This document shows positions 3,226 through 32,765 of a stretch of DNA of 64,000 bases, piece after piece. The notes under the pieces are model-generated. The model was given only the letters and a program-made list of their open reading frames with translations. It searched no databases and was not told where the DNA came from. Numbering within the stretch: the stretch's first letter is position 1; every line of letters starts with the position of its first letter. The DNA is from Minisyncoccota bacterium. GTDB taxonomy: Bacteria > Patescibacteriota > Minisyncoccia > UBA6257 > 2-01-FULL-56-20. The translations under genes were made by a program, and so were the position numbers. Location of the stretch: contig JBAYLC010000005.1 in assembly GCA_041664245.1 (NCBI GenBank), positions 8,695 through 72,694 on the forward strand. Reading direction: 5' to 3'.

Positions 3226-3250
3226 CCCTCTGTAATTCAAGATCTAATAG

Positions 3251-3712
3251 ATGAAGCCGTATTCAAGAAAAATACCAACCAGCCTTTTCGAAAAAATTCA
3301 CAAATCTGTTCCGATAGTAACTGTGGATTTAGTTGTAACGAGTGGAAAAAATTTTCTCTTAGTTTTTCGTAAAAATAATCCAGAAGCCCAAACTTGGTAT
3401 TTTCCTGGGGGAAGGTTATTTAAAAACGAGCATTTATTAGATTCAGCAAGGAGAAAATTACGGGAAGAAACTGGATTGTCGGGCAAAAATTATAGAATAC
3501 TAGGAATTCACGAGCACTTTTATAATCCAAAAAAGAGTTATTTCAAGGGTTTTGGATCTCACGCTCTAGCTGTTATATTTAGAGTAGAAGTTAGTAAAAA
3601 AGAAAATATAAAATTAGATTCCCAAAGTCTCGATTTCAGATGGTTTAATAGTGTCGATAAAAATTTTAATCCGTATATTAAAAAATTTTTAAAAATAGCT
3701 AATCTTGGATAG
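3251..3712 (+). CDS. Nudix hydrolase (GDP-mannose mannosyl hydrolase-like, Gmm/WcaH-type)
   Basis: Nudix box GGRLFKNEHLLDSARRKLREETGL. Sits between gmd and fcl, as gmm does in colanic-acid and fucose loci. Confidence 0.7.
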   Translation: MKPYSRKIPTSLFEKIHKSVPIVTVDLVVTSGKNFLLVFRKNNPEAQTWYFPGGRLFKNEHLLDSARRKLREETGLSGKNYRILGIHEHFYNPKKSYFKGFGSHALAVIFRVEVSKKENIKLDSQSLDFRWFNSVDKNFNPYIKKFLKIANLG

Positions 3713-4691: not shown

Positions 4692-4737
4692 CGATAAAAA
4701 TCCTTGGGCGAGATAATAAAAAAGCAATAAAAATTTT

Positions 4738-5829: not shown

Positions 5830-6774
5830 ATGTCATCTAAAAAAATTCTTATAACCGGCGGGGCGGGCTATATTGGATCGATATTGGTTCCGGAGTTATT
5901 ACGAGCGGGGCACGAGGTAACCGTTATTGATAATTTTACCTATAACCAGTCCTCGCTTTTGGATGTTTGTAATTTTCAAACCCTTACCCTGATTCGCGGT
6001 GACGCTCGTGATGAAAAAATAATCTCCCAGCACATTAAAGAAAAGGATTTTATTATTCCGCTTGCTTGCGTTGTTGGTGCTCCTGCTTGTAATAGAGACC
6101 CAGTTGCCGCTCGCACCATTAATCTTGAAGCAGTAGAACTTATTCTAAAACTTCGCGAAAAATGTCAAAAAATTATTTTTCCCAATACCAATAGCGGCTA
6201 TGGTCGGATGGCCGAAGGTGTCGCATTTTGTGATGAAACAAGTACTCTCGATCCAATCTCGCTTTACGGCAAACTAAAAGTGCAAGCGGAAAAAGAACTG
6301 CTCGAAGCGGGAAACGCGATCACTTTACGACTCGCTACCGTCTTCGGGATTAGTCCTCGTATGCGCCTCGATCTTCTTGTGAATGATTTTGTTTATCGCG
6401 CCGTTAATGATGGGGCCGTTGTATTATTCGAGCCTCATTTCAAACGTAATTATATTCACATCAGAGATGTGGCGGGTGCCTTTATGCATGCGATGGAAAA
6501 TTTTGAAAAAATGAAAAACGAACCCTATAATGTCGGTCTTTCAGACGCTAACTTAAGTAAGATTGAACTTTGTGAGGAAATAAAAAAGCAAATTCCCAAC
6601 TTTGTTTTCATAGAATCAAAAATAGGAGAAGATCCTGATAAACGGAATTATATTGTAAGTAATACTAAAATTGAAAATATGGGTTTCAAGCCCCGAATAT
6701 CGCTTACCGAGGGAATTTCTGAGCTGATCAAGGGTTATCAAATTATTAAAAGAAATAACTTCTCTAATCTCTAG
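5830..6774 (+). CDS. NAD-dependent sugar epimerase/dehydratase (extended SDR)
   Basis: ILITGGAGYIGS Rossmann motif and extended-SDR length. Confidence 0.8.
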   Translation: MSSKKILITGGAGYIGSILVPELLRAGHEVTVIDNFTYNQSSLLDVCNFQTLTLIRGDARDEKIISQHIKEKDFIIPLACVVGAPACNRDPVAARTINLEAVELILKLREKCQKIIFPNTNSGYGRMAEGVAFCDETSTLDPISLYGKLKVQAEKELLEAGNAITLRLATVFGISPRMRLDLLVNDFVYRAVNDGAVVLFEPHFKRNYIHIRDVAGAFMHAMENFEKMKNEPYNVGLSDANLSKIELCEEIKKQIPNFVFIESKIGEDPDKRNYIVSNTKIENMGFKPRISLTEGISELIKGYQIIKRNNFSNL

Positions 6775-6880: not shown

Positions 6881-8392
6881 ATGAGTCGTTTAGACGCAGT
6901 TTTTGTTATCCCTGGCAACCTCACTCAGGTTTACCAAGTTTTTGCTAAAGAACACGCCATCGAACCGCCTATTTTCGCCCTCTGGATAGCGTCTCATCTA
7001 GAGAGCAAAGGGTATAGTTTCGAATTTATTGATGCCGTGCCGTCCAATCTTTTTCCAGAAGAAGTTGCTGCTGAAGTCGTTCATCTCAACCCAAGACTTG
7101 TTATTGTACCTGTCTATGGTTCTCAACCTTCTGCTTCAACTCAAAACATGCCAGCCGCGCGAAGAACGTGCCAAGCAATAAAAGATCTCAAGCCAGATCA
7201 AAAAATCCTCGTCACTGGCACCCATCCCGCGGCATTACCAGAGCGAACTCTTAGGGAAGAACCAGTGGATTTTGTTTGCGACGGTGAAGGTCCCACAACT
7301 CTTATCGAAATTCTCGAGGTCTTGAGAAATGGGGATGATGTTTCCAATGTGGGAAGTCTTTGGTACTGGGAAAGTGGGAAACCCAAATACACTCATCCGG
7401 CGCGGAATGTTACCGAACTTGAGTTTGATCCGGACATCTGGCGATTTCTTCCGATGAGTCGCTACATTGCCCACGATTGGCATACTGGTTATCGAGATTT
7501 TGCGTCTCGCAAGCCCTACGCTTCTATCCTAACTACGCTTGGTTGTCCTTTCCGATGTTCATTCTGCTGCATTCAAACTCCGTTTAGAGCGGGTGAGGCA
7601 GCTATAGGGCGTAATCCAAAATCGAACTCTTACCGTTTCTGGTCGCCGCAGGTCATCATCAAAACCATAGAAGTGCTCGTTAGAAAGTATGGTATGGAGC
7701 ATATCAAGATTCACGATGAGTTATTCGTCTTGAATCAAAGGCATGTGAGTGCCATTTGCGCTTTAATCAAAGAACGCTTCAACGATGATTTGAATATTTG
7801 GGCTTACTCTCGTGCCGACACAGCCCAGCCTAAGTCTTTAGACATCCTAAGGGCGGCCGGGATTCGTTGGCTAGCTGTTGGTATTGAGCGCGACGGTAAA
7901 AACAAATCTTTTTCTGGCGAGGATATACTCCGAGTTAGAGAAATGATTAAGGATGCTGGTATTAAATTAGCGGCGAACTACATTTTTGGACTGCCCGGTG
8001 ATACCAAGGATAGCATGCAGGCTACACTAGATATGGCTCTGGCAATAAATTCGCCATTCGCTAATTTCTATTGTGCTATGGCTTACCCCGGTTCCGAACT
8101 CTATGAGGAAGCCGTAAGAAGAAATTTACCATTGCCAGATAGTCCTGGTGGTCCCGGTTGGATTGGTTACTCTCAGCACGCCTACGAAGCCACGCCTCTT
8201 CCGACCGATTCTCTTTCCGCCGCAGACATTCTTCGTTTTAGGGATGAAGCCTGGAGGAGATACTACACCAACCCAAAGTTTCTTTCCATGCTTCAGGATT
8301 GGTATGGTGAAAACGGCGAAGAAGCAGAGAGAAACATAAAAAAAATGACCTCTCTATCTCCCCTCCGCCGAGCGCTTTTCGAAAAAACATGA
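6881..8392 (+). CDS. B12-binding-domain radical SAM enzyme
   Basis: N-terminal cobalamin-binding Rossmann-like domain. Cys cluster CPFRCSFCC (CxxxCxxC plus an extra C), then a TIM-barrel-length region. Class-B radical SAM architecture. Confidence 0.8.
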   Translation: MSRLDAVFVIPGNLTQVYQVFAKEHAIEPPIFALWIASHLESKGYSFEFIDAVPSNLFPEEVAAEVVHLNPRLVIVPVYGSQPSASTQNMPAARRTCQAIKDLKPDQKILVTGTHPAALPERTLREEPVDFVCDGEGPTTLIEILEVLRNGDDVSNVGSLWYWESGKPKYTHPARNVTELEFDPDIWRFLPMSRYIAHDWHTGYRDFASRKPYASILTTLGCPFRCSFCCIQTPFRAGEAAIGRNPKSNSYRFWSPQVIIKTIEVLVRKYGMEHIKIHDELFVLNQRHVSAICALIKERFNDDLNIWAYSRADTAQPKSLDILRAAGIRWLAVGIERDGKNKSFSGEDILRVREMIKDAGIKLAANYIFGLPGDTKDSMQATLDMALAINSPFANFYCAMAYPGSELYEEAVRRNLPLPDSPGGPGWIGYSQHAYEATPLPTDSLSAADILRFRDEAWRRYYTNPKFLSMLQDWYGENGEEAERNIKKMTSLSPLRRALFEKT

Positions 8393-9189: not shown

Positions 9190-9993
9190 ATGAATAAAGA
9201 ACTTAGAAATAGAGTGGCGTTAATCACGGGCTCAAGTCGCGGTATCGGCAAGGAGATCGCCGTAACACTCGCGAAAGCCGGTGCCGATGTTGTAATCTGC
9301 GGGTCAAGTAAGGTAAACGTAGAAAAAGCAGAAAAAGAACTAGGGTCGTCTGGGACAAAAACATACTCTTACGTACTTGATGCCACAAAAAGCGCGGAGG
9401 TCAAAAATCTGTTTTCAAATATAATTCAGAAAATCGGCCAGCTAGACATTCTCGTGAATAACGTCGGCGGTATAAAGGAGTCGGTAAAGTTTTTGGATGT
9501 TACGGATGAGCAGTGGCAAGCAGCATGGAATTTAAATTTCATGACGATGGTTAATTTCTCACGCGAGGCGATTCCCTGGCTAAAAAAATCCCTTTATGGA
9601 AGAATTATTAATATCTCAAGTGTTCCAGGGAAACAGCCGGGAATGTTTAATCCTCATTATGGCGCCCCGAAGGCTGCCATGAATTATCTAAATAAATACC
9701 TCGCCAACTCTCTTGCACCCGACGGAATTCTTGTTAATGCAATTTTGCCACACACAGTCTTGGGTGGATTATGGGACGAGCATGTGGCAGATAGAGCTAA
9801 AAAACTAAATGTTTCCGCCGAAGAGGCAGGAGAAATTATGAAAAAAGAGATTAAAGAAAGAATTCCATTAGGGAAAATGGCAATGCTGGAAGATGTTGCC
9901 GAATTGGTTGCTTTTTTAGCGTCCGACAAAGCAAAATTCATTACCGGCACAAGTATTGCCGTTGATGGCGGAACTATTAAATCAATTTTCTAA
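9190..9993 (+). CDS. SDR-family oxidoreductase (paralog of 17037-17846)
   Basis: ALITGSSRGIGKEIA and classical SDR length. Matching blocks with 17037-17846 (LITG..GIGK, NVGG, NISS..GKQPG.FNPHYGA, EDVAELVAFLASD.AKFITGT) indicate about 55-60% identity by eye; not computed. Confidence 0.85.
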   Translation: MNKELRNRVALITGSSRGIGKEIAVTLAKAGADVVICGSSKVNVEKAEKELGSSGTKTYSYVLDATKSAEVKNLFSNIIQKIGQLDILVNNVGGIKESVKFLDVTDEQWQAAWNLNFMTMVNFSREAIPWLKKSLYGRIINISSVPGKQPGMFNPHYGAPKAAMNYLNKYLANSLAPDGILVNAILPHTVLGGLWDEHVADRAKKLNVSAEEAGEIMKKEIKERIPLGKMAMLEDVAELVAFLASDKAKFITGTSIAVDGGTIKSIF

Positions 9994-10952
9994 TGAAATA
10001 CCGAAAATTAGGCGATACCGGTCTTATCGTTTCGGAAATTGGCTTTGGCGCTTGGGGAATTGGGGGGCTTTCGGCCGGTGCGACTTCATACGGCGAGACG
10101 AATGATGATGAATCTTGTAAGGCTCTCAAGCGCGCCTATGATTTAGGGGTAAATTTTTATGATACCTCAGATTTGTATGGCGCTGGGCACAGTGAGGAAT
10201 TGATTGGCGAAGCGCTAAAGGCAGTCCGTGACAAAGTTATTATTGCGACAAAAGTTGGTTTTCTTGAGCACCGAGGCCAGCAGGATTTTAAAAGAGATTA
10301 CATTAGAAAATCTCTCGTGGAGAGTTTAAAGCGACTAAAAACCGATTACGTCGATCTTTATCAATTGCACAGTCCTGATATAAAAGTTGTTGAAGAAAAT
10401 AATGAGATTTTAGAGACACTCCAAGATTTAAAAAAAGAGGGGAAAATAAGGGTTTTTGGAATTTCTGTTCGGCATCCGGATGATGCTCTTGTCGCAGTAA
10501 AAAAATTAAACATAAAATCCATCCAGGCAAATTTTAATATAATTGATCAGCGTATCATTGAAAACGGTCTTTTTGAACTTGCTAAGGATATGAGCGTTGG
10601 CATCATTGCAAGAACCCCGCTTAATTTTGGATTTTTAAGCGGAAAACTCAATAATACAACCTTTGGCCCCGGCGACCATCGATCGGCTTGGCCCAAGAGC
10701 CAACTTATAAAATGGGCAGAAGCTCCACGTTTGTTTTCTTTCCTATCCAAGGGGAAGCTGACCCCCGTACAGGTGGCGCTTAATTTCTGCCTTAGTTTTG
10801 AGGCGGTTTCCGTTGTTATTCCCGGGATGCTAACAGAAGCGGAGGTGGAAGAAAATGTTATTGTGAGCTCTGCGGAAAAATTTACAAGAGATGAGCTCAT
10901 GCGGGCTAGAAAAGTATATAATGAAAATGATTTTTTTGAGAGGAATAAATAA
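9993..10952 (+). CDS. aldo/keto reductase
   Basis: GFGAWGIGG and AKR fold-length. ATG overlaps the upstream stop. Confidence 0.85.
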   Translation: MKYRKLGDTGLIVSEIGFGAWGIGGLSAGATSYGETNDDESCKALKRAYDLGVNFYDTSDLYGAGHSEELIGEALKAVRDKVIIATKVGFLEHRGQQDFKRDYIRKSLVESLKRLKTDYVDLYQLHSPDIKVVEENNEILETLQDLKKEGKIRVFGISVRHPDDALVAVKKLNIKSIQANFNIIDQRIIENGLFELAKDMSVGIIARTPLNFGFLSGKLNNTTFGPGDHRSAWPKSQLIKWAEAPRLFSFLSKGKLTPVQVALNFCLSFEAVSVVIPGMLTEAEVEENVIVSSAEKFTRDELMRARKVYNENDFFERNK

Positions 10953-11149
10953 TTTTTCCGGAAATTTTTAAATTAATGAATACTCAAATGATTTCTAGAT
11001 TCTCCTCGTTTGTGGGTGATTTTTGTTAGGTGGAAGATTTTTAAGCAGAATAGTAATATTTAATATCTTTATTCGTTGCTGTTTGTTTTTTAAAAGAGTT
11101 TTACGAGGCATTGATTTGTTTGCTTCACCGCCAAGGTCTGTCTAATATT

Positions 11150-11179
11150 TTGACAACGCCAAAACCGAAGCGGTATACT
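11150..11179 (+). promoter_or_regulatory. sigma70-type promoter (TTGACA-18 bp-TATACT) upstream of the DegT-family gene
   Basis: Read directly in the 305-bp intergenic region. Confidence 0.5.
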
Positions 11180-11257
11180 CATTTTGTAATTTATAATCTA
11201 GCCCTCTTAAGTTATACTCAAAAAGTTTTTTCTTAAAATAAATATAAATACAGTGAA

Positions 11258-12436
11258 ATGTTAGAAAAAAAAATAAAATATTTTCTCGCCGAAGACACAA
11301 TTGATCATAAGGACATAGATGCGCTTATCGAGTGGCTTAAGACTTATCCGCGCCTTACAAAAGATAAACTTACTATTGAGTTCGAAGGAAAATGGAATAA
11401 TTGGTTGGGAAGGAAATATTCCGTATTTAATAATTCCGGTTCTTCTGCAAACTTACTCATGTATTATGCGCTTCTTCTGTCCGGAAGATTAAAAAATAAG
11501 AAAATCATCGTGCCTAGCGTAGGGTGGGTTACAACTATCGCTCCCGCAATCCAATTCGGATTTGAGCCGATTATGTGTGAGGCAGATAAAAAAACATTTG
11601 GACTCGACTTAGAGCATTTAGAAAAACTTTTAATTGAGCACCGGCCGAGTACGGTTATTTTTGTGCAAGTTTTAGGTGTCCCGAATAAAATGGAAGAACT
11701 ATTAGCGCTTAAAGAAAAATACGGATTCACATTGCTTGAAGATGCTTGTGCGGCAATGGGATCAACTTATCAGGGCAAAAACGTAGGCACATTCGGAGAC
11801 ATGGCAAGTTTCTCGTTCTACTTTGGCCATCAGATCTCAACAATCGAGGGTGGCATGGTCTCTACCGATGATAAAGAGCTAAACGATCTACTCTTAATGC
11901 TTCGGAGTCATGGTTGGGATAAGGATTTAGACAATGAGACAAGGGCTGGTTTGCGCTCAAAATACAACATAGATGATTTTCATTCCCCATTTGTTTTTTA
12001 CGAACCCGGATTTAATCTGCGATCAACTGATCTCAATGCCTTTCTAGGAATTCGCCAAGTGGACAAAATGGAGTGGTTAGTGAGGCGCAGAAATGAAAAC
12101 CACCTACTCTACAAAAAAATTCTTAGAGACAGATTTTATTTTCAGGAATATGATTCAGATTCCACAATTTGTAGTATCCATTTTGGTATGCTTGCAAAAG
12201 ATACCGAGGAGAGAAGGAAAATAGTAAGCGCCTTAGAGCAAGAAGGTGTAGAAACGCGTATTTTTTCGGCTGGTAATCTTGGACTCCATCCATTTTGGGC
12301 AAACCGGTATGGCGTGGCTTCTTTCCCGATGGCCGACCGCATCCACCACACCGGACTTTTTCTACCAAACAATCCTTCTCTAAAAATTGAAGATATAGAA
12401 TTTATATCGAAAACAGTTTTGCAAAGCGTTCCATAA
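11258..12436 (+). CDS. DegT/DnrJ/EryC1 family PLP/PMP enzyme; sugar 3-dehydratase type (ColD/E1-like) rather than aminotransferase
   Basis: DegT fold. At the position of the Schiff-base Lys (SF..K..GEGG) it has SFYFGHQISTIEGGMV. His replacing Lys is the hallmark of GDP-4-keto-6-deoxymannose 3-dehydratase ColD and CDP-hexulose 3-dehydrase E1. Confidence 0.65.
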   Translation: MLEKKIKYFLAEDTIDHKDIDALIEWLKTYPRLTKDKLTIEFEGKWNNWLGRKYSVFNNSGSSANLLMYYALLLSGRLKNKKIIVPSVGWVTTIAPAIQFGFEPIMCEADKKTFGLDLEHLEKLLIEHRPSTVIFVQVLGVPNKMEELLALKEKYGFTLLEDACAAMGSTYQGKNVGTFGDMASFSFYFGHQISTIEGGMVSTDDKELNDLLLMLRSHGWDKDLDNETRAGLRSKYNIDDFHSPFVFYEPGFNLRSTDLNAFLGIRQVDKMEWLVRRRNENHLLYKKILRDRFYFQEYDSDSTICSIHFGMLAKDTEERRKIVSALEQEGVETRIFSAGNLGLHPFWANRYGVASFPMADRIHHTGLFLPNNPSLKIEDIEFISKTVLQSVP

Positions 12437-12473
12437 AAGAAATTTTTAAAAAAGAGATTGAAATTTTTATCAC

Positions 12474-12506
12474 TAGCCACTCTAATCCTTTCTGTGGCTA
12501 TTTTAC
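12474..12506 (+). terminator. rho-independent terminator after the DegT-family gene
   Basis: TAGCCAC-13 nt loop-GTGGCTA followed by TTTTACT. Confidence 0.5.
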
Positions 12507-12683
12507 TGAAGATAAAAATCTCGTACTTATTTTTAAAAAATCATCACTTATCTTGCATTTTTTTCGGTCTTAGTGCAAAATATGTTTGTTAAGTTTTAAG
12601 TACGCCCGGGGTTTTGTGTGTTATCTATGGCTTTTAAGATCACATCATTATTCGTCGAACTGATTCTAAGGGAGTAGTTTTTC

Positions 12684-13292
12684 ATGACCAAACAAGAACT
12701 TATCGAGTTCGAAAACGAAATTGCCGACATCTACTGCGCCGGAAAAATTCTAGCGCCGATTCATTTATCTGATGGTAATGAAGATGTTCTAATAAATATA
12801 TTCAAAGACATTAAGGAAGACGACTGGGTATTTTCTACGTGGCGCAGCCACTATCACGCTTTGCTTCATGGTGTGCCGCGAGAAAAAGTAAAAAATGAAA
12901 TTATTAAAGGAAATAGTATCACATTAAGTTTTCCTGAGCATCGATTTTTTACGTCGGCAATCGTTGGGGGAATCGTGCCTATCGCCATGGGTGTCGCGCT
13001 TGGCCTCGAGATGAAAAAAGAAAAGCACCATGTTTGGTGTTTTGTAGGGGATATGACCGCCGAAACCGGCGGGTTTTATGAGTCCGTAAAATACGCCAAC
13101 AATCACAAATTACCCGTTACTTTTATAGTGGAAGATAATGAGGAGAGTGTGGGAACGCCTACGAGATCTGTTTGGGGATACGGGCCTAATCAAAAATCTG
13201 ATTACCTCCTGTACCCGCACGATAATATGATCTATTACCATTATAAAAAGAAGTATCCGCATGTCGGTGCGGGGAAGTGGGTTACCTTTTAG
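12684..13292 (+). CDS. thiamine-diphosphate enzyme, PP (diphosphate-binding) domain subunit; transketolase/E1-alpha-like
   Basis: GDMTAETGGFYESVKYANNHKLPVTFIVEDNEES fits the TK/E1 ThDP motif GD...E...A...L...DN..S. Confidence 0.7.
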   Translation: MTKQELIEFENEIADIYCAGKILAPIHLSDGNEDVLINIFKDIKEDDWVFSTWRSHYHALLHGVPREKVKNEIIKGNSITLSFPEHRFFTSAIVGGIVPIAMGVALGLEMKKEKHHVWCFVGDMTAETGGFYESVKYANNHKLPVTFIVEDNEESVGTPTRSVWGYGPNQKSDYLLYPHDNMIYYHYKKKYPHVGAGKWVTF

Positions 13293-13842
13293 TAATTACA
13301 CAGCTATGCGCTACTTAGAAGAAATTAAGCGGGCAATGGTGCTTCTTGCCGAGGATGATCGCACGGTATTTGTTGGGCAGAGCGTGGCTTATCCCGGAAA
13401 CGCAATTTTTAATTCTCTCAAAGATATTCCTACTACAAAGAAAATAGAGTTACCTGTTTTCGAGGAAACTCAAATGGGGTTATCGATAGGGCTTGCGCTT
13501 AATGGTTTTATCCCTGTTAGTATCTTTCCGCGTTTTAATTTTCTCCTTTTAGCTATGAACCAACTCGTAAATCACTTGGATAAAATTTCACATATTTCGC
13601 ATGGAGAATTACAACCAAAGGTTATTATCAAAGTAATGGTAGGGAGTGTCCACCCATTTGATCCCGGAATTCAACACAAAAGTAATTTTACTGAAGCTCT
13701 CCGTAAGCTTGTCGATTCCGTTATTGTCGAAGATCTTACGGAGCCAGAACTGATTTTCCCCGCCTACGAACGCGCACTCTCGCGGAACGATGGCAAGTCG
13801 ACTATTCTTGTCGAATACGGAGATTATTATAACGAAAAATAA
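13261..13842 (+). CDS. thiamine-diphosphate enzyme, Pyr (pyrimidine-binding) domain subunit; transketolase central-domain-like
   Basis: Overlaps the upstream gene by 32 nt (coupled). Length and FVGQSVAYPG...GLSIGLALNGFIPV resemble the TK/E1-beta Pyr domain. No transketolase C-terminal domain. Confidence 0.55.
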   Translation: MSVRGSGLPFSNYTAMRYLEEIKRAMVLLAEDDRTVFVGQSVAYPGNAIFNSLKDIPTTKKIELPVFEETQMGLSIGLALNGFIPVSIFPRFNFLLLAMNQLVNHLDKISHISHGELQPKVIIKVMVGSVHPFDPGIQHKSNFTEALRKLVDSVIVEDLTEPELIFPAYERALSRNDGKSTILVEYGDYYNEK

Positions 13843-13851: not shown

Positions 13852-14850
13852 ATGATTATTTCCCGAACACCTTTTCGTATATCCTTTTTCGGAGGGGGCA
13901 CCGATTATCCCGCTTGGTATAAGGAAAATGGTGGCGCCGTTCTTTCGGCATCGATCGATAAATATTGTTACCTTACGTGTCGGTATCTACCTCCATTTTT
14001 TGAGCATAAGACAAGAGTTGTTTGGTCTAAAATTGAAACGGTGGCGCAAACAGAAGAGATTCAACATCCGGCCATCCGGGAGACCATAAAATTTTTAGGA
14101 ATCCAAGATGGCTTACAAATCCATCATGACGCAGATCTTCCCGCACGCTCCGGGATTGGTTCGAGCTCATCCTTTACAGTAGGGCTTTTGAACTCTCTCT
14201 ATACTCTCCTAGGGAAAAGTCCTACCAAAACACAACTTGCGCTCGAAGCGATTCATGTAGAACAAGAACTCGTAAAAGAAAATGTGGGCTCCCAAGATCA
14301 GTCCGCCGCCGCGTTTGGGGGATTTAACAAGATTGAATTTGGTGGTCCTGATCATATTCGCGTGACGCCTATCGGCATATCACAGGCCGATCTCGACGCA
14401 TTACAGAGCCATCTAATGCTTTTTTTTACAGGATTTGCAAGAAATGCCTCAGAGATTGCGGCAGAGCAGATTCGGTTAACCTCGCAGAAAGCAAAAGAGC
14501 TCAAAATAATGTATAGCATGGTAAATACGGCAGAAGAATTACTCGAAAAGAGGGATTTCGACGGTTTTGGAAAACTTCTCCACGAAAATTGGAAGATCAA
14601 AAGGACGCTTTCGTCACAAATCAGCAATAATGCTATTGATGAAATTTATGAATTAGGTAAATCCGCTGGAGCTTTGGGTGGAAAGCTTTTAGGAGCCGGA
14701 GCGGGTGGATTTATACTTTTTTTTGTGAAGCCGGAACATCAGGAAAGGGTAAAAGCGGCGCTTAGTAAGTTGTTGTATGTGCCGATAAAATTTGAAAAAG
14801 AGGGAAGCCAAATTATCTTTAATAATGGCGCGAAAACTTATACTTCCTAA
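13852..14850 (+). CDS. GHMP kinase, D-glycero-alpha-D-manno-heptose 7-phosphate kinase (HddA)-like
   Basis: MIISRTPFRISFFGGGTDYP and PARSGIGSSSSF (GHMP ATP motif). Confidence 0.8.
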   Translation: MIISRTPFRISFFGGGTDYPAWYKENGGAVLSASIDKYCYLTCRYLPPFFEHKTRVVWSKIETVAQTEEIQHPAIRETIKFLGIQDGLQIHHDADLPARSGIGSSSSFTVGLLNSLYTLLGKSPTKTQLALEAIHVEQELVKENVGSQDQSAAAFGGFNKIEFGGPDHIRVTPIGISQADLDALQSHLMLFFTGFARNASEIAAEQIRLTSQKAKELKIMYSMVNTAEELLEKRDFDGFGKLLHENWKIKRTLSSQISNNAIDEIYELGKSAGALGGKLLGAGAGGFILFFVKPEHQERVKAALSKLLYVPIKFEKEGSQIIFNNGAKTYTS

Positions 14851-15568
14851 TAAAATTAAGTATAAAACCAAGGAATCCGCTAATCCTCCAGAGATTGACG
14901 TAGTAATTTTAGCCGGTGGATTGGGAAAACGGTTACGTCGTGCAATCTCCGGTAAGCCTAAGGTGCTCGCAGAGGTGGCTGGGCGGCCGTTTCTCGATAT
15001 ATTAATTAACCATTTATTAACTGCCGGTTTTTATCGGGTTATTTTAAGTATTGGATATTTAAAAGATCAGATCAAAGATCGCTACAAAGGGAAGGGAATT
15101 ATTTTTGCCGAGGAAGAAGATCCTTTGGGAACTGGCGGAGGAATAAAAAATGCCCAACAGTTTATAAAGAGTGAAAATTTTTTTGTTATGAATGGAGATT
15201 CTTGGATATCAGATGGAATAGACATGCGCGCAATTCACGATTTTCATAAAAATAAAAAAGCGTTAATCACTATGGTGCTCTCTCGGCCCAGAGAGGAGAA
15301 GGATTACGGCGCAGTATTCTTGGGTGAAGATAATCGGATCAGCCGTTTTAATGAAAAATCAAAAGAGGAGAATGGCCATTTCTTAAATGCCGGCATCTAT
15401 ATCATGAATAAAAAAGTTTTATCTAAAATGAAAACAACTCCCTTCTCCCTTGAGGTTGATTTTTTTCCAGGATTAATTGGCGGAGCTTTTTATGGCTTCC
15501 CTATAAACGGAGAAGTAATTGATATTGGAACACCCGAAAGATATAAAGCTGCCCAGCAGAAATTTTAA
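14825..15568 (+). CDS. sugar-1-phosphate nucleotidyltransferase (HddC-like guanylyltransferase)
   Basis: VVILAGGLGKRLR motif. Track ORF begins at 14792; the internal ATG at 14825 is a more likely start. Start remains uncertain. Confidence 0.75.
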   Translation: MARKLILPNKIKYKTKESANPPEIDVVILAGGLGKRLRRAISGKPKVLAEVAGRPFLDILINHLLTAGFYRVILSIGYLKDQIKDRYKGKGIIFAEEEDPLGTGGGIKNAQQFIKSENFFVMNGDSWISDGIDMRAIHDFHKNKKALITMVLSRPREEKDYGAVFLGEDNRISRFNEKSKEENGHFLNAGIYIMNKKVLSKMKTTPFSLEVDFFPGLIGGAFYGFPINGEVIDIGTPERYKAAQQKF

Positions 15569-15639
15569 AGCTAATCATGATACTCATCTTCTCCGTAAAA
15601 ATTGTTTTTATATAATAGTCAATAATCTAATCAAAGGGT

Positions 15640-16890
15640 GTGCGCCCCGTGATTCGAAAATCCACAAATAGTAATAGAATGAAAATAGCTATTATATGTT
15701 TTAACCTCTTTACCGCCGGTGGAGCGCGTCTTGTTTTTAATCTCGCGCAGTCGTTGGGCGCACAAGGCGAAAAAGTTATAATCTACACCCCAAAATTTGA
15801 AGGCACAGATTTTCCTGATCTAGCAGAGGGACTCGAAATAAAAGTAGTTGAAAAAGAAATTAATTTTTTTAAAAGTAATAAGCCAAGAAATATTTTTGAT
15901 TGGATATGGAAAAAAATAAAACATGAGAGAGAATTTATAAAAACCTCTCGTGCAATTGCGGAACTCATGGACGCTGATTTTGATGCAGTGAACGTGCATG
16001 ATAGCTCATACCGTGTGGGGTATTACTACAAAAGAAAAAATCCGAACGCTAAAATCATTTGGACCGTAAACGGAGAGCCATTTCAATACCTTTCCCGCAA
16101 AAAATTAATGCGCGACATTTTGGGATATTGCTATCAATTCTTAAAGCGCCTTACGAGTTATAAGTTTTTGAATGCAATTGATGGGGCCGTTGTTTTGGCC
16201 AATGGAGATAGAGAATGGTTTAAAGGATCCCCGATAAGGAATGTATCGGTAGTAAGGGCCGGTCTTGATTTCAAGAAGTTTTATGCCCCCGTTAAGGATT
16301 TTCAGGAAAAGGCCAGAAAAAAATACGTAAAACTTATGGCGCTGGGCGCATTAAATGTTTTTCGGCGTTATGAAGACGTCATCCAAGCCGTAAAATATTT
16401 ACGCGAGTGGAATTACGACGCCAGCTCAGTAATTTTTGCCGCCAACGTTTGGAATGAAAACAAATATCAAGCGGACCTCCTCGAACTTATTAGAGAAAAT
16501 AATCTTGAAAAATTTGTAGAGATGCGTTTTAGTGGCGTTTCTGAAAAAGAGCTTGCGGGACTCTACCAAGATTCCGATATTTTCATCCAGGCAGTCTATG
16601 TCCCTCCGCCGGGACATCACGGCTGGGGACTCGTGAATTTCGAAGCTATGGCTGCAGGGCTGCCAGTTATTTTATGCAGAGCCTCAACCGCAACTGAAGT
16701 CCTTATTGACGGCGTGAGCGCCTTCTTTGTTGATCCTCTCTCACCGCGACAAATTGCCGAGAAAGTAAAACTGTGCATTGATCACCCGGATATATATGCT
16801 AAAGTTGCCAAATCCGGTCAGGATGTTGCTCAGAGTATGACGTGGGAAAAATATTCCAAGGAAATATTAATACTTCTCAAAAAAGCGTAA
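15640..16890 (+). CDS. GT4 glycosyltransferase (paralog of 19849-21033)
   Basis: C-terminal EAMAAGLPVI GT4 motif. True start may be the internal MKIAIICF at about 15679. Confidence 0.8.
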   Translation: MRPVIRKSTNSNRMKIAIICFNLFTAGGARLVFNLAQSLGAQGEKVIIYTPKFEGTDFPDLAEGLEIKVVEKEINFFKSNKPRNIFDWIWKKIKHEREFIKTSRAIAELMDADFDAVNVHDSSYRVGYYYKRKNPNAKIIWTVNGEPFQYLSRKKLMRDILGYCYQFLKRLTSYKFLNAIDGAVVLANGDREWFKGSPIRNVSVVRAGLDFKKFYAPVKDFQEKARKKYVKLMALGALNVFRRYEDVIQAVKYLREWNYDASSVIFAANVWNENKYQADLLELIRENNLEKFVEMRFSGVSEKELAGLYQDSDIFIQAVYVPPPGHHGWGLVNFEAMAAGLPVILCRASTATEVLIDGVSAFFVDPLSPRQIAEKVKLCIDHPDIYAKVAKSGQDVAQSMTWEKYSKEILILLKKA

Positions 16891-17867: not shown

Positions 17868-19145
17868 TTATTTACTTATAATTTTAACCTCTGGAAGTGG
17901 GATTATGAATTTTGATCTTAAACCTTTCTTTCGAAGCTTCTTAATGATTGTATCCGCAATATGCCAGGAGAAAAGCAATACGTAATCTGGCTGATCTATG
18001 AAAAGTTGTTTTTCGTCAATGATTGGTATGTGCGTACCCGGTGAGTGAAGGCCGAGCTTCAGTGAACTGGATTGTTCAGCGAGGTAGGGAATAAGCAAGG
18101 AATCAATATGGCAGTAATTAAGAATGGGACTCGAGCGGCCCGGGCTTCCAACGCCCGCAATAGTCTTTTCTTTTAGTTTTAGTTCGGAGAGAAATTTCAC
18201 TAATTTTAACCGCGAAGTTTCGATTCTCTTTTTAAAATTAATATAGGTCGGTTGCTTGTAGAGCCCGGCTTTTTCTTCCGCCTGAATAAGCGAGGCGATG
18301 TGAGGGGATTGAGAAAGATTTTTTCCTTTCGTGGCAAAAACCCGAATTGATCCTCCAGATGAGGAGATACGTTCAGCATCCGTGAGGGTGAAGCCGAATT
18401 TTTCGAAAAGAAGCGAAAGTGGCTTCAGTGAATAAAAACGAAGATGTTCATGATACATTGTGTCATATTGCACTTTTTGAATCGTGTCTAAAAGATATTG
18501 TGATTCGGATATAAACACTCCGCCTGGTTTAAGTAGGGTATAAACCCCTTCCACGAAAGAGCTGAGATTATTAATGTGGGCAAAAACGTTTGTTGCGATA
18601 ACAAGCGAGGCGGTGCCGTGTTTTTTCACGATCTGCTTAGCGATCTCCTTCGTAAAGAAATCATTTATAGTCGGTATCCCTTGTTTTATTGCTATTCGCG
18701 CTACGTCCGTTGGCTCGATTCCTAAAACCCGCATCCCCTTTTCCTTGAAAGGTTGGAGCGCAGTGCCGTCGTTTGATCCAATATCCACAATAAGTGATCC
18801 TTTCGGTAGTTTTAATCGTGCCACGGTTGCCTCCGCAAGCTCTTTAAAATTATCAACAAGCATTTGTGTGATCCCTGTTCGATATGGATATTTTTTATGG
18901 AAAACCACTTGTGGCGGCGGAATAAAATCTAATTGAACCAATCCGCACTTAACACACCGTACCACGTTAATCGGGTAGTGAATTTCCTCTTCTTTTATCT
19001 CTTTAGCATTGAGTAAAACATCGCAGGGTGGTTGATGGTCCAAATTTACAATATCGATTAGCTCTTTAGAGCCGCAAATCTGGCAGGTCGTTAACTTTCC
19101 CAATGGGTTTTTATTCATTTTTTTAATTTCCTTTATATTCCGCAA
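17868..19145 (-). CDS. NDP-hexose C-methyltransferase (TylCIII/Methyltransf_13-14 type) with N-terminal Zn ribbon
   Basis: CQICGSKEL...CDVLL...VVRCVKCGLVQLD zinc-binding N-terminus. Class I SAM fold (IVDIGSNDG). Confidence 0.75.
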   Translation of the reverse strand: MRNIKEIKKMNKNPLGKLTTCQICGSKELIDIVNLDHQPPCDVLLNAKEIKEEEIHYPINVVRCVKCGLVQLDFIPPPQVVFHKKYPYRTGITQMLVDNFKELAEATVARLKLPKGSLIVDIGSNDGTALQPFKEKGMRVLGIEPTDVARIAIKQGIPTINDFFTKEIAKQIVKKHGTASLVIATNVFAHINNLSSFVEGVYTLLKPGGVFISESQYLLDTIQKVQYDTMYHEHLRFYSLKPLSLLFEKFGFTLTDAERISSSGGSIRVFATKGKNLSQSPHIASLIQAEEKAGLYKQPTYINFKKRIETSRLKLVKFLSELKLKEKTIAGVGSPGRSSPILNYCHIDSLLIPYLAEQSSSLKLGLHSPGTHIPIIDEKQLFIDQPDYVLLFSWHIADTIIKKLRKKGLRSKFIIPLPEVKIISK

Positions 19146-19233
19146 TTATAAACAAAGCGAATCTCTTTTACAAATTTACACCGCGACTCAAGTGTTGTCT
19201 GAGGTTGATTTTAAATGTACAATAATACCCGCA

Positions 19234-19800
19234 ATGATTTCTATGGATAGTATTGAAAAAGCGTTTGAGCAGCACGGCGAAATAGTGCGAAAAACCGCGG
19301 AAAGCATGGCGGCTGATATAAAAAAAGGCGCCTCAATACTAGAGCAGGCGGTAAAAAACGGTCATTGTGTCTTTATGTGTGGTAATGGGGGTTCGGCGGC
19401 GGATGCCCAGCACTTTGCGGCGGAATTTGTTTGCAAATATAAAAACGACCGGCGCCCCTTCTCGGCGGTAGCTCTTACTGTAGATACTTCTGCGCTAACC
19501 GCGATTGGTAACGATTTTGGCTTTGAGAACGTTTTTAGCCGCCAAATCGAGGCACTCGGTAGGAAAGAAGATGTACTCATTGCAATCACAACAAGCGGAA
19601 TTTCAAAAAATATTTTAAATGCCATCGTTAAAGCAAGGAAGTTAGGACTAACCGTTATAGCGCTTACTGGCGCCCGCGGGAAAAATATGGACGCTGATCT
19701 TGTTATTGCGATACCATCCGAAGAAACTGCGCGCATTCAAGAAATGCATGAACTGATCTATCACTCATGGTGTGAATATATTGAGTCAAAAATTATTTGA
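19234..19800 (+). CDS. gmhA: sedoheptulose-7-phosphate isomerase (SIS domain)
   Basis: VFMCGNGGSAADAQHFAAEFV is the GmhA signature. Track ORF starts at 19192; internal ATG 19234 is more plausible. Confidence 0.85.
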   Translation: MISMDSIEKAFEQHGEIVRKTAESMAADIKKGASILEQAVKNGHCVFMCGNGGSAADAQHFAAEFVCKYKNDRRPFSAVALTVDTSALTAIGNDFGFENVFSRQIEALGRKEDVLIAITTSGISKNILNAIVKARKLGLTVIALTGARGKNMDADLVIAIPSEETARIQEMHELIYHSWCEYIESKII

Positions 19801-27642: not shown

Positions 27643-27657
27643 TTAGTAAAGTTTTCT

Positions 27658-31587: not shown

Positions 31588-32202
31588 ATGTACTCAGAAT
31601 ATATAAATAGCTATCTAAATGAGGTTAAAACGATCGTTGATAAAATTGATCGAAATTCGATTAATAAATTTATAGAAGTTTTGAAAGGGGTTCGGGATCA
31701 AAAGGGGCGCTTGTTCATTATTGGCATCGGCGGCGGTGCCGGTCACGCCAGTCACGCGGTGAACGACTTCCGCAAACTCACCAGTATTGAATCCTATACT
31801 CCCGTTGATAACGTTTCGGAAATGACCGCCAGAGCCAATGACGATGGCTGGCACACGATTTTTTCTAATTGGCTTGCGGGAAGCTCTTTAAATAATAAAG
31901 ATGCCGTTTTTGTTTTCTCTGTTGGCGGCGGAAATTCCGAGAAAAATATCAGCCCTAACATTGTTGAAGCTCTTAAATATGCCAAGCAAGTTGGCGCGAA
32001 AGTAGTTGGAATTGTCGGTCGGGACGGCGGTTACACCGCCCAAGTGGCCGATGCCTGCGTTATTGTTCCAGTTGTAAATTCTGAAAACGTCACTCCTCAC
32101 ACCGAAGCTTTTCAGGCTATCATCTGGCACCTCATTGTTTCTCATCCCGGTTTTAAAACCAAAGAAGGTAAATGGGAGTCCGTCCAAACTCGAATAAGTT
32201 AG
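31588..32202 (+). CDS. SIS-domain sugar-phosphate isomerase (divergent GmhA-like)
   Basis: FIIGIGGGAGHASHAVNDF parallels GmhA GNGGSAADAQHFAAE. Confidence 0.65.
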   Translation: MYSEYINSYLNEVKTIVDKIDRNSINKFIEVLKGVRDQKGRLFIIGIGGGAGHASHAVNDFRKLTSIESYTPVDNVSEMTARANDDGWHTIFSNWLAGSSLNNKDAVFVFSVGGGNSEKNISPNIVEALKYAKQVGAKVVGIVGRDGGYTAQVADACVIVPVVNSENVTPHTEAFQAIIWHLIVSHPGFKTKEGKWESVQTRIS

Positions 32203-32765
32203 CCAGAAGGAAAGCTGTTTTTCTCGACCGCGACGGAACTATAATCCATCACGTCGAGTTGATGCACCGGGTCGCTGATTTGAAATTTTTCCCGCAAACT
32301 GCGAGTGCAATCAAATCGCTAAATCGGCTCGGATTTTTAGTGGTGGTAATTACAAACCAGCCAGTTATCGCGCGCGGGATTATCACTCCCAAAGAAGTTG
32401 ATGCGATCCACGCCGTCTTAATAGAACGCCTGAATAAAAAAGGCGCTCGTATTGATGCCGTCTATTTTTGCCCCCATCATCCCAACGCCGACTTAAAAAA
32501 ATATCGCCTCAAATGCCGCTGTCGCAAACCAGCCCCCGGGCTTATCCTGAAAGCCCTTAAGGAATTCAATATTAATCCTAAAAAAAGTTTTATGATCGGC
32601 GATTCGGTGATTGATATTGTTGCCGGGCATAAAGCCAAACTCAAAACTATTCTTGTTAAAACCGGTCCCGGCCACGCCCGAGACAAAGAATTCGTTGATA
32701 TCAAACCGAATTTTACTTCCGAAAATTTACTCGCCGCCGTTAAGATCGTTGAAGATCATTCTTGA
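32172..32765 (+). CDS. gmhB: D,D-heptose 1,7-bisphosphate phosphatase (HAD-IIIA)
   Basis: AVFLDRDGTI, Zn site CPHHP...CRCRKP, GDS.ID. Confidence 0.8.
   Translation: MGVRPNSNKLARRKAVFLDRDGTIIHHVELMHRVADLKFFPQTASAIKSLNRLGFLVVVITNQPVIARGIITPKEVDAIHAVLIERLNKKGARIDAVYFCPHHPNADLKKYRLKCRCRKPAPGLILKALKEFNINPKKSFMIGDSVIDIVAGHKAKLKTILVKTGPGHARDKEFVDIKPNFTSENLLAAVKIVEDHS

Follow-up and report, generated by a model that had tools for sequence, protein, structure and literature searches.

We have analysed a stretch of 64,000 nucleotides from a Minisyncoccota bacterium (contig JBAYLC010000005.1, positions 8,695 to 72,694; the whole stretch is called "the window", and its own numbering is used throughout), focusing on positions 11258–13842, where a gene of the DegT family is followed by the two small genes of a thiamine diphosphate (ThDP) enzyme. 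[quoted passage not shown] We see about an even chance that mini-E1 is a ThDP carboligase that adds a two-carbon branch to a GDP-4-keto-(3-deoxy)heptose, i.e. that its function is like that of YerE or AviB1/AviB2, with a heptose as the acceptor and not a 3,6-dideoxyhexose. The protein families, their folds, the conservation of the ThDP- and metal-binding residues and of the catalytic Glu and His, and the genomic association of the pair are direct observations.

The original prediction for this region, which was made from the sequence alone, had described a 3-dehydratase of the ColD/E1 type coupled to a minimal split ThDP enzyme of the transketolase type, on a candidate route to a branched 3,6-dideoxyhexose on a GDP scaffold. 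All the open reading frames (ORFs) that it named are present in the sequence and a GDP-type scaffold is supported by our analysis, while the type of the ThDP enzyme and the identity of the sugar have been revised.

A minimal E1-type pair

The alpha protein consists of a pyrophosphate-binding (PP) domain only, and the beta protein of a pyrimidine-binding (Pyr) domain only; in the Pfam search, neither Transketolase_N (PF00456) nor Transketolase_C (PF02780) matches the pair, and PF02775 gives a marginal match only. The best NCBIfam model for the alpha protein is TIGR03182 (PDH E1 alpha, 109 bits), and for the beta protein it is NF006667 (E1 beta). A profile built from 18 family members finds human E1 alpha at 2e-16, versus 1e-4 to 1e-5 for transketolase and DXS, with the alpha family profile spanning only residues 48–215 of the 365 residues of human E1 alpha. 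The AlphaFold 2 models of the two proteins (pLDDT 88.5 for alpha, 90.0 for beta) lead to the same family: the top 50 Foldseek matches of the alpha model are all E1 alpha chains of PDH or of branched-chain 2-oxo acid dehydrogenase (BCKDH), with TM scores of 0.6–0.8 on the query, while the top 15 matches of the beta model are E1 beta chains (TM 0.77–0.86), aligned through the N-terminal halves of these 324-residue proteins, for which TM scores of 0.84–0.86 are reached. DXS is the next-best fold for beta and the split transketolase 6yaj is found at rank 35, both well below E1 beta.

Judged from these profiles and models, the pair is PDH-E1 alpha/beta-like and not transketolase-like. The minimal PP plus Pyr architecture that had been predicted, lacking Transketolase_C, thus stands, but its assignment to the transketolase type does not, and neither does the idea of a bona fide split transketolase, since both the profile and the structure searches place the pair with E1. 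Transketolase membership was rejected on account of the missing Transketolase_N and Transketolase_C domains, the profile values and the fold ranks. A split enzyme of the phosphonopyruvate or sulfopyruvate decarboxylase type, which likewise consists of two small subunits, was also considered; it was rejected because the order is PP then Pyr and all matches are to E1.

The residues that bind and activate the cofactor in E1 have counterparts in the pair. The ThDP/Mg motif of the alpha protein (GDM...EDN), within GDMTAETGGFYESVKYANNHKLPVTFIVEDN, aligns with GDGGTSQGDFYE...VVQNN of structure 1w85; G122, M124 and N152 do not vary within the family, and at least 90% of its sequences have D123. Near its C-terminus, the alpha protein carries a family-specific, invariant YPHVGAG motif, and there are additional invariant His residues. 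In the beta protein, Glu53 and His124 are invariant across the family and align with the catalytic Glu and His of E1 beta, with PVFEE opposite PLNE/PISE, and QH opposite YH.

The longest ORF of the beta gene begins at 13261, which creates an overlap of 32 nucleotides with the alpha gene. The homologues of the beta protein are mostly 178 aa long and begin at Met16 of this ORF, hence the start of the beta gene is likely, from this comparison, to be 13306, 13 nucleotides past the alpha stop at 13292. The overlap is probably an artefact of choosing the longest ORF; the translational coupling that had been proposed is retained as tight packing of alpha and beta, but the two genes do not follow the DegT gene immediately, as they are separated from it by 247 nucleotides. 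The two genes encode one heteromeric ThDP enzyme that is under selection, as is indicated by natural alpha–beta fusions of about 400 aa (P0259, P0333 and P0357; proteins carry P numbers and loci carry L numbers). Where they are not fused, the alpha and beta genes are always adjacent or within one cassette.

Going by its domain content, the pair cannot be the E1 of a PDH: the C-terminal half of alpha and the C-terminal domain of beta are missing, and there are no E2 or E3 genes in the window. It can be described as an E1 that appears cut down to its catalytic PP and Pyr domains, with the features that serve the lipoyl-E2 core lost.

The ColD-type protein upstream of the pair

The closest solved structure to the DegT-family protein is ColD of E. 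coli O55 (2gms, E 1.9e-52), followed by the E1 dehydrase 3bcx (3e-39) and by aminotransferases (1.5e-32 or weaker). HMMER aligns the His of FSFYFGHQISTIEGG (FYFGHQIST) with His188 of ColD, the residue that has been changed in the deposited mutants H188K and H188N (PDB 2r0t, 3b8x); as had been predicted, a His thus replaces the Lys that forms the internal aldimine in the DegT/DnrJ/EryC1 aminotransferases. The Cys-rich insert GRDCYCAPGCDNTC of 3bcx is matched by a gap of four residues without Cys, in agreement with the predicted absence of the [2Fe-2S] motif; the whole protein has three Cys residues, and the LLED motif is kept in the alignment with ColD. Orthologues with 77–79% identity occur in L004 and L006, and the His is also kept in orthologues.

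Two other identities were rejected: that of an E1 dehydrase (DdhC/AscC, CDP-6-deoxy-L-threo-D-glycero-4-hexulose 3-dehydrase), because the [2Fe-2S] Cys motif is absent, and that of a sugar aminotransferase, because of the His at the position of the Schiff-base Lys. No gene for an E3-type reductase, the partner of the E1 dehydrase, was noted among the annotated genes of the locus. By its alignments, the protein is of the ColD type, and neither of the E1 type nor an aminotransferase, so that only the first half of the "ColD/E1-type" label is kept. It is a candidate for the removal of the 3-hydroxyl from a GDP-4-keto sugar, with glutamate regenerating the pyridoxamine phosphate (PMP) cofactor; as the identity to ColD is only 34% across 345 aa, its substrate, and even its reaction, are uncertain. 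The heptose C3-dehydratases of Campylobacter jejuni HS:5/HS:11 are 62–67% identical to ColD (PMC10440746), and the C. jejuni enzyme acts on GDP-4-keto-heptoses (PMC10440746, PMC10680097).

The spacers around the ColD-like gene are unusually long for a tightly packed locus (10953–11257, 305 nucleotides; 12437–12683, 247 nucleotides), and blastx and blastn searches found no gene remnant, conserved element or similarity to other loci in either of them. An Rfam scan of the entire window returned one tRNA only, with no riboswitch in these spacers. A site matching 11 of 12 promoter positions lies at 11150–11179, upstream of the DegT gene; over the window, the counts of promoter-like and terminator-like sites are not above the shuffled expectation (34 vs 27.4 and 15 vs 11.7). 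Possibly, the DegT gene was inserted into the cassette at a later time.

Conserved neighbours of the pair

We have compared the surroundings of the pair in 33 genome loci and 80 viral loci (IMG/VR, L042–L121). We labelled the genes from our own ORF calls, using BLASTP with the proteins of the window and a small number of additional references as the targets, with spot checks against Pfam, NCBIfam and the PDB; the contigs are short and unlabelled ORFs may hide reductases or kinases, while many of the viral loci repeat a few types of cassette with little change, so that the viral counts overstate the number of independent events.

The most constant partners of the pair are enzymes that make or use a 4-keto group on GDP-heptose, and not the DegT protein. 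Homologues of the Cj1427-like C4-dehydrogenase of the window (54–82% identity) are found beside the pair in 14 of the 33 genome loci and in 39 of the 80 viral loci, and a protein that resembles GDP-heptose 4,6-dehydratase is found in 26 of the viral loci; these "Gmd-like" proteins match the GDP-D-glycero-D-manno-heptose 4,6-dehydratase 7us5 at 1e-104 and 1e-106, and the GDP-mannose dehydratases at 1e-36 to 1e-41. One or the other of the two enzymes is present in 22/33 genome and 64/80 viral loci, many of the remaining loci being truncated. An RmlC-like 3,5-epimerase (16/33 and 58/80) and a distant Fcl-like reductase (18/33 and 56/80) are also frequent.

The genes for sugar-phosphate activation are distributed differently. 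A GHMP kinase, often adjoining the pair, occurs in 19 of the 33 genome loci, while the viral loci contain it in ten, GmhA in four and an NTP-transferase in one case out of 80. Certain gene orders recur: GmhA – Cj1427-like – GHMP – alpha – beta – DegT in actinobacteria and Methylopumilus, Cj1427-like – RmlC – alpha – x – Fcl-like – Fcl-like – beta in many viral contigs, and a four-gene cassette with the order RmlC – alpha – heptose 4,6-dehydratase – beta. In L010, L011, L017, L025, L034 and 14 viral loci, a Cj1427-like gene is present with no recognisable C4 reductase within 10 kb.

Reductases of types that are not usual for sugars are located directly upstream of the pair in several loci: an aldo-keto reductase (AKR) in the window, L005 and L007 (orthologues with 56–59% identity, also present in L033), and a Zn-dependent alcohol dehydrogenase (Zn-ADH) together with a FabG-like reductase in L038 and in two cyanophages. 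In L038 and in both cyanophages, a PfkB kinase adjoins the fused enzyme.

A DegT gene is located near the pair in about one third of the genome loci and in 18 of the 80 viral loci, and 3-deoxygenation would thus be optional, as about two thirds of the loci with the pair have no DegT. Where the motif can be read, 32 of 34 neighbouring DegT proteins are of the His type (14/15 in genome loci, 1/1 in L036, 17/18 among the complete viral ones), which argues that the His of the window protein is not a sequencing accident. The enrichment is strong, measured against the solved DegT structures, few of which, out of several dozen, are of the His type. These proteins belong to several lineages, sharing only 26–33% identity among themselves and with the window protein. 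The recurrence of His-type DegT proteins beside the pair in many unrelated lineages bears out the predicted functional link between the two, and it is the strongest argument that the dehydratase acts on the same molecule as the ThDP enzyme.

Additional neighbours of the pair were observed in subsets of the loci. Homologues of the B12-binding radical S-adenosylmethionine (SAM) protein of the window are located beside it in L006, L016, L020, L025, L036 and 20 viral loci, and in L036 they are found on both sides of the fused mini-E1 gene; such a protein might methylate the sugar or the new branch. A FAD-dependent oxidoreductase of the DAO family (LhgO-like) adjoins the Cj1427-like gene in four loci (L010 18052–19311, L012 5637–6839, L017 5560–6816 and L034 4510–5799); it may be an L-2-hydroxyglutarate oxidase that regenerates 2-oxoglutarate for the Cj1427-like dehydrogenase. 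A family of proteins of about 385–480 aa, for which Pfam has no match and which may be the product's glycosyltransferase, lies inside the viral Cj1427–RmlC–alpha–...–beta cassettes of 47 viral loci and also in L014 (e.g. L050 8573–9730 and 12220–13665); no homologue of it was found in the window. In loci of the Rhabdochlamydiaceae type, the beta gene is directly followed by a gene for a protein of about 320 aa, also without a Pfam match (L010 11139–12122, L011 11141–12100, L034 11128–12108), which has a YEFGCGTG motif, typical of SAM-dependent methyltransferases. Other ThDP enzymes were also encountered: L007 encodes a full-length E1-like pair (2849–4726; 310 + 312 aa, 30% identity to mini-E1 alpha) beside a C-methyltransferase, and L033 encodes a true split transketolase (14602–16265; 253 + 301 aa) alongside the mini pair, with split transketolases also occurring in SAR11 loci. 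One glycan locus can thus encode several ThDP enzymes.

Proposed pathway and alternative explanations

Under the carboligase reading, GmhA (19192), the GHMP kinase (13852), the GmhB-like phosphatase and the nucleotidyltransferase (14825) would convert sedoheptulose-7-phosphate to GDP-D-glycero-D-manno-heptose, which the Cj1427-like dehydrogenase (5830) would oxidise to GDP-4-keto-heptose, and the ColD-type dehydratase (11258) would convert the latter to GDP-3-deoxy-4-keto-heptose. Mini-E1 would then decarboxylate a 2-oxo acid to a ThDP-bound acyl-anion equivalent, the analogy with E1p, YerE and AviB making pyruvate the likeliest substrate, and would add this equivalent to the C4 carbonyl, so that the sugar gains a tertiary alcohol and a 4-C-acyl (acetyl) branch. 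The new side-chain ketone would be reduced by the AKR (9993) and/or the short-chain dehydrogenase/reductase (SDR; 9190), and the branched sugar would be transferred by glycosyltransferases of the Wzx/Wzy-type surface-polysaccharide locus. For this scheme, we infer the acceptor and the donor, the site of the branch and the sequence of the steps.

The early steps have a precedent in C. jejuni, where Cj1427 oxidises GDP-heptose at C4, with 2-oxoglutarate re-oxidising the bound NADH (PMC10680097, PMC10440746), where Cj1427 and a ColD-type C3-dehydratase together produce GDP-3-deoxy-4-keto-heptose in vitro (PMC10680097), and where the ColD-type dehydratase liberates 2-oxoglutarate from glutamate (PMC10680097, PMC10440746). 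Three features of the compared loci agree with the scheme: the near absence of sugar-phosphate genes from the viral loci places the enzyme at the level of the nucleotide sugar; in the loci that have a C4-dehydrogenase and no C4 reductase, the ketone would be left unresolved unless the ThDP enzyme consumes it; and the DAO-family genes beside the Cj1427-like gene in four loci fit a recycling of 2-hydroxyglutarate. The Cj1427-like dehydrogenase might also be joined with the ThDP enzyme in a redox-neutral cycle of oxidation, branching and reduction, in which the trapped NADH reduces the side-chain ketone and no 2-oxoglutarate is used.

Several points weigh against the carboligase. Most loci carry one or two Fcl-like C4 reductases; with C4 turned into a tertiary alcohol, these would have no task left, except on the branch or on a different sugar. 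Three families of kinases adjoin the enzyme or are fused with it (GHMP in 19/33 genome loci, PfkB in L038 and the cyanophages, and a weak aminoglycoside phosphotransferase (APH) domain in P0315), which hints at a sugar-phosphate step. In real E1 enzymes, a segment that the alpha protein is without contributes the gating loops and an active-site His, and the catalytic competence of mini-E1 is deduced from the conservation of its residues. The name given to the C4-dehydrogenase depends on structure 6vo6, which is probably that of Cj1427, with which the aligned sequence agrees. Finally, no reconstituted E1-type sugar C-acyltransferase was found in the literature, the roles of AviB1/AviB2, Pau11/Pau12 and EvdU5/EvdS3 having been put forward on the basis of genetics and homology.

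The kinases lead to an alternative that we regard as unlikely, namely that the pair is a minimal transketolase or DXS, which extends an aldose phosphate by two carbons to sedoheptulose-7-phosphate, or to an octulose or nonulose phosphate, for the GmhA-like isomerase, the kinase and the nucleotidyltransferase; the supply of sedoheptulose-7-phosphate had also been the alternative offered by the original prediction. It would account for the contiguity of alpha, beta, the GHMP kinase and the NTP-transferase in the window, for the frequent GHMP kinase and the PfkB kinase beside the fused enzyme, for the weak APH-like fusion and for DXS being the next-best fold of beta. It conflicts, however, with the E1 type of the pair, with the true split transketolases that co-occur with it in L033 and in SAR11 loci, with the window having a transaldolase of its own, and with the 80 viral loci, where the kinase, isomerase and transferase are almost absent and enzymes for the 4-keto group at the level of the nucleotide sugar occur in 64; the enrichment of His-type DegT proteins would also be left unexplained. 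Hosts such as Methylopumilus and SAR11 should have sedoheptulose-7-phosphate in any case, which again counts against this alternative, and on these grounds its supply was set aside as the principal function of the pair. The product that had originally been favoured, a yersiniose-like branched 3,6-dideoxyhexose made from GDP-4-keto-6-deoxymannose (gmd) through GDP-4-keto-3,6-dideoxymannose (ColD) and the addition of two carbons by the ThDP pair, now seems decidedly improbable. The gmd gene at 2245 is real, the dehydratase is of the ColD type, the pair directly follows gmd–NUDIX–fcl in L009 and L033, and YerE offers a precedent (PMC12247030); yet this gmd is part of a complete GDP-fucose cassette with NUDIX, fcl (482 bits) and GT10 genes, which accounts for it without a role as the supplier of the precursor, the dehydratases that are paired with mini-E1 elsewhere match the heptose enzyme 7us5 and not gmd, the conserved partners are the Cj1427-like heptose dehydrogenase and heptose activation genes, and the 34% identity of the window protein to ColD contrasts with the 62–67% of the C. 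jejuni heptose C3-dehydratases (PMC10440746). The substrate is probably a GDP-heptose that has been oxidised at C4 by the Cj1427-like dehydrogenase, and a 6-deoxygenation is not indicated in the window.

Two further explanations keep the ThDP chemistry and change its target. In one of them, which we consider very unlikely, ThDP attacks the C4 carbonyl with the sugar in the role of the donor, as happens in transketolase or the acetoin-cleaving E1, and the C3–C4 bond breaks and forms again, to give an epimerised, ring-contracted or shortened sugar. This would share with the carboligase the association with 4-keto-forming enzymes, it would keep the co-occurring C4 reductases necessary, and the E1 family does include the acetoin-cleaving AcoA/AcoB, with matches in Acinetobacter phages annotated as acoA; the cleavage needs the C3 hydroxyl, however, which the recurrent His-type 3-dehydratases remove, and we know of no precedent on nucleotide sugars. 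In the other, to which we assign the lowest probability, the enzyme decarboxylates 2-oxo acids away from the sugar, by handling the 2-oxoglutarate or other 2-oxo acids of the Cj1427 and ColD half-reactions or by supplying an aldehyde or an acyl group for a substituent of the glycan that is not a carbohydrate. The use of 2-oxoglutarate as the oxidant by Cj1427 and its release from glutamate by ColD-type enzymes (PMC10680097, PMC10440746) are in line with this, and so are the LhgO-like genes beside the Cj1427-like genes in L010, L012, L017 and L034, but the pair is also found together with 4,6-dehydratases, enzymes that work without 2-oxoglutarate, no substituent transferase is conserved beside the pair, and the destruction of the co-substrate of a neighbouring enzyme would be counter-productive.

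Other genes of the window

Positions 1–42 kb of the window form a polysaccharide locus of the Wzx/Wzy type, with Wzy at 203, the flippase at 37758–39245 and the initiating transferase at 40997–42331, which holds three units: a GDP-L-fucose cassette, the mini-E1 module and a second activation module. The mini-E1 module comprises, in this order, the Cj1427-like dehydrogenase, the B12-binding radical SAM protein, an RfaE-domain-II-like nucleotidyltransferase (minus strand), the SDR, the AKR, the ColD-like protein, alpha, beta, the GHMP kinase, the NTP-transferase, a family 4 glycosyltransferase (GT4), a second SDR, the C-methyltransferase (minus strand) and GmhA (Table 1). From alpha to the NTP-transferase the genes are contiguous, with gaps of at most 13 nucleotides or overlaps: the GHMP kinase starts 9 nucleotides past the beta stop, and the nucleotidyltransferase gene overlaps the end of the kinase gene. 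The ThDP pair and sugar activation thus make up one tight transcriptional block, with the dehydratase just upstream.

Table 1. Features of the mini-E1 module and related genes in the window, and fused mini-E1 genes of cultured cyanomyoviruses.
Feature	Coordinates	Strand	Details
Cj1427-like GDP-heptose C4-dehydrogenase	5830..6774	+	E 3.2e-112 to PDB 6vo6/6vo8, residues 3-313, full length
B12-binding radical SAM protein, class B methyltransferase-like	6881..8392	+	PF02310 + PF04055
Classical SDR, FabG-like, candidate ketoreductase	9190..9993	+	adh_short, adh_short_C2; paralogue 17037-17846
AKR, candidate acyl-branch reductase (Pau7-like role)	9993..10952	+	PF00248 2e-63
Candidate ColD-type PMP-dependent sugar 3-dehydratase, DegT family	11258..12436	+	392 aa, PF01041 1.5e-70
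Mini-E1 alpha, PP domain only	12684..13292	+	202 aa, PF00676 E1_dh positions 5-170 of 300
Mini-E1 beta, Pyr domain only	13306..13842	+	178 aa, PF02779 Transket_pyr; longest ORF from 13261 (193 aa)
GHMP sugar kinase, distantly HddA-like	13852..14850	+	GHMP_kinases_N/_C; NF049969 HddA 155 bits vs cut-off 600
Sugar-1-phosphate nucleotidyltransferase, HddC/ManC-like	14825..15568 (longest ORF 14792)	+	PF00483; NF049965 HddC 119 bits vs cut-off 300
NDP-hexose C-methyltransferase family, TylCIII-like; also needs a 4-keto sugar	17868..19145	-	PF08421 + PF13489 + PF08484
GmhA-like sedoheptulose-7-phosphate isomerase	19192..19800	+	NF010546 207 bits (cut-off 276), TIGR00441 187 bits; both just below cut-off
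GmhB-like heptose-1,7-bisphosphate phosphatase, second module	32172..32765	+	NF006506 156 bits vs cut-off 178; tblastn match from L025 GmhB
Fused mini-E1, Prochlorococcus phage P-TIM68 (L122)	167767-168912		Fusion in cultured cyanomyovirus
Fused mini-E1, Synechococcus phage S-SM2 (L123)	149421-150629		Fusion in cultured cyanomyovirus

The families of GmhA, the anomeric kinase, GmhB and the guanylyltransferase are thus all present in the window, each below its NCBIfam cut-off; the HddA and HddC genes that had been placed next to the pair are there as families, but their scores are far below the cut-offs. The C-methyltransferase that had been predicted at 17868–19145 is confirmed by the PF08421 and PF08484 domains of NDP-hexose C-methyltransferases.

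The GDP-L-fucose cassette at 2245–5823 is complete, with gmd, a NUDIX protein that resembles GDP-mannose mannosyl hydrolase, fcl and a GT10 fucosyltransferase; its gmd is genuine, scoring 534 bits with TIGR01472, for which the cut-off is 415. The fucose block, Wzy and a gene for a protein of 209 aa are 84% conserved in L009 and L033, where the mini-E1 pair comes directly after them.

The second activation module (26656–33535) contains a GHMP kinase (26656), a UDP-glucose/GDP-mannose dehydrogenase (27658), an SDR, a GFO/IDH/MocA oxidoreductase, a protein of the transaldolase/FSA family (30854–31582), a SIS isomerase (31588–32202), the GmhB-like phosphatase and an NTP-transferase (32783–33535). 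With the transaldolase, the supply of sedoheptulose-7-phosphate is covered. Its set of transaldolase, isomerase, kinase, phosphatase and transferase resembles the LmbR/N/P/K/O route to GDP-octose in lincomycin biosynthesis as much as it does a heptose route.

Distribution of the family in cells and viruses

A profile search of 1.84 billion cluster representatives found 189 clusters at E<=1e-30. Among the best 120 database matches of each subunit, all are of similar length (about 200 aa for alpha, about 178 aa for beta), with identities down to 55–60%, and the exact mini-E1 protein of the window is recorded from a metagenome-assembled genome (MAG) of Candidatus Paceibacterota, a member of the candidate phyla radiation (CPR). 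A pattern scan of 185,579 species-representative genomes found at least 31 loci, all in MAGs or single-amplified genomes, from Patescibacteria, SAR11, SAR116, Ca. Nanopelagicus, Ca. Methylopumilus, Rhabdochlamydiaceae, Dehalococcoidia, Phycisphaerales, Desulfomonile and Woesearchaeota. In IMG/VR, at least 430 contigs, some of which may be cellular, encode a relative of mini-E1; both counts are lower bounds, as the scans used exact peptide patterns. Mini-E1 is far commoner in the viral contigs (430) than in the species-representative genomes (31).

The fused form, about 380–400 aa long, occurs in two cultured cyanomyoviruses, Prochlorococcus phage P-TIM68 (gp190) and Synechococcus phage S-SM2 (SSM2_198), where it is annotated as "transketolase central region-containing protein"; its identity to the window pair is 43–46% in the alpha part and 39–42% in the beta part. 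The cyanophage gene lies between genes for Zn-ADH and FabG-like reductases and genes for a PfkB kinase, an RfaE-domain-II-like transferase and a phosphoheptose isomerase. Matches in Acinetobacter phages bear the annotation acoA. Two homologues of mini-E1 alpha, P0254 and P0260, are interrupted by inteins, one of which has a LAGLIDADG endonuclease domain. In another protein of 552 aa (P0315, L035 1124–2782), a weak APH domain precedes a divergent mini-E1 alpha with GDG instead of GDM; this fusion was set aside as too thin to interpret, given the 3-kb contig and the weak APH match.

In the literature that we searched, nothing relevant turned up on ThDP enzymes of heptose pathways or on O-antigen clusters with E1 genes, and the mini-E1 family appears to be undescribed.

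Significance

The envelope glycans of CPR bacteria, DPANN archaea, SAR11 and freshwater actinobacteria are essentially uncharacterised, and if the carboligase reading is true, branched sugars derived from heptose would be predicted in all of them. The family would then represent a compact, widespread and unstudied group of ThDP carboligases that form tertiary alcohols on nucleotide sugars, and the presence of the same cassette in viral contigs and in two cultured cyanophages would point to a virus-driven remodelling of glycans. Carboligation that yields tertiary alcohols is a reaction in demand in biocatalysis, for which only the YerE-like enzymes have been studied well (PMC12247030). The fused phage proteins of about 380–400 aa, with substrates made by the published C. 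jejuni enzymes, would also provide the first tractable system for the E1-type branching that has long been proposed for avilamycin, paulomycin and everninomicin.

A wider version of this reading is tentative and, in our view, rather doubtful as a whole: that no E1-type ThDP enzyme is smaller than mini-E1, which has about 380 residues for each active unit, that mini-E1 makes a new class of nine-carbon sugars, the 4-C-(1-hydroxyethyl)- or 4-C-acetyl-heptoses, on the surfaces of SAR11, acI, CPR and DPANN cells, which are counted among the most abundant uncultivated microbes, and that viruses, including the cultured cyanomyoviruses, carry the cassette in order to remodel the glycans of the host or the virion.

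Comparison with known systems

The window shares with ColD the His at the position of the Lys and the lack of an Fe-S cluster motif in the DegT protein, but the next gene encodes the ThDP enzyme and not an epimerase/reductase of the ColC type. The families of the C. jejuni capsular heptose pathway (GmhA, HddA, GmhB, HddC, Cj1427, Cj1430 and Cj1428) are found in the window and in the related loci, with the RmlC-like and Fcl-like members occurring elsewhere than in the window, while the kinase and the transferase of the window are distant from HddA and HddC; among the 20 enzymes that are listed for the heptose pathways of C. jejuni none is ThDP-dependent, and thiamine is not mentioned (PMC10680097).

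With the alpha2beta2 E1 enzymes of PDH, BCKDH and acetoin cleavage, mini-E1 has in common the PP and Pyr folds, with TM scores of 0.72–0.86, the metal/ThDP motif, the cofactor-activating Glu and the His of beta. It differs from them in that alpha is without the residues past about 215 (human numbering), i.e. without the phosphorylation loops and the active-site His, in that beta is without the E2-binding C-terminal domain, and in the YPHVGAG motif and the extra invariant His residues of alpha. With split transketolases it shares the two genes, the order of PP then Pyr and the Pfam model of the Pyr domain.

In the biosynthesis of yersiniose A, YerE decarboxylates pyruvate and adds the activated acetaldehyde to a 4-keto 3-deoxy nucleotide sugar, after a His-type 3-dehydratase has acted (PMC12247030); the chemistry that we propose for mini-E1, and the order of 3-deoxygenation before branching, would be the same. 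YerE is a single chain of the acetolactate-synthase type, with the order Pyr–middle(FAD)–PP and a CDP-3,6-dideoxyhexose as its substrate, whereas the window enzyme is a split E1 type with PP then Pyr, has no middle domain and would use a GDP-heptose.

The nearest parallels are the E1 alpha/beta-like pairs AviB1/AviB2, Pau11/Pau12 and EvdU5/EvdS3 of the avilamycin, paulomycin and everninomicin pathways, for which a transfer of two carbons from pyruvate to a C4 keto sugar has been proposed (PMC4425429, PMC4753412, PMC10338323) and is termed hypothesised in PMC10338323. As in those clusters, the E1 alpha/beta homologues of the window are located in a glycan cluster beside enzymes for 4-keto sugars, and the AKR upstream of the pair recalls Pau7, the aldo-keto reductase beside Pau11/Pau12 that acts on paulomycose by reducing its acetyl branch at C-4 (PMC4753412). 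The pairs, which we have likened by their descriptions, differ in size, as Pau11 (325 aa) and Pau12 (345 aa) are full length and the window proteins have 202 and 178 aa, and they differ in setting, since the AviB, Pau and Evd pairs belong to antibiotic clusters of actinomycetes and act on TDP- or UDP-sugars or on sugars that are already attached, whereas the window pair and its relatives are found in GDP-heptose surface-glycan loci of uncultivated lineages and of phages. The recruitment of an E1-type enzyme for the branching of sugars is hence not new as a concept, and the AviB, Pau and Evd pairs precede mini-E1 in this respect; what is distinct here is the minimal architecture, the GDP-heptose context, the range of carriers (CPR, DPANN, SAR11, acI, Chlamydiae and phages) and the coupling to a ColD-type dehydratase.

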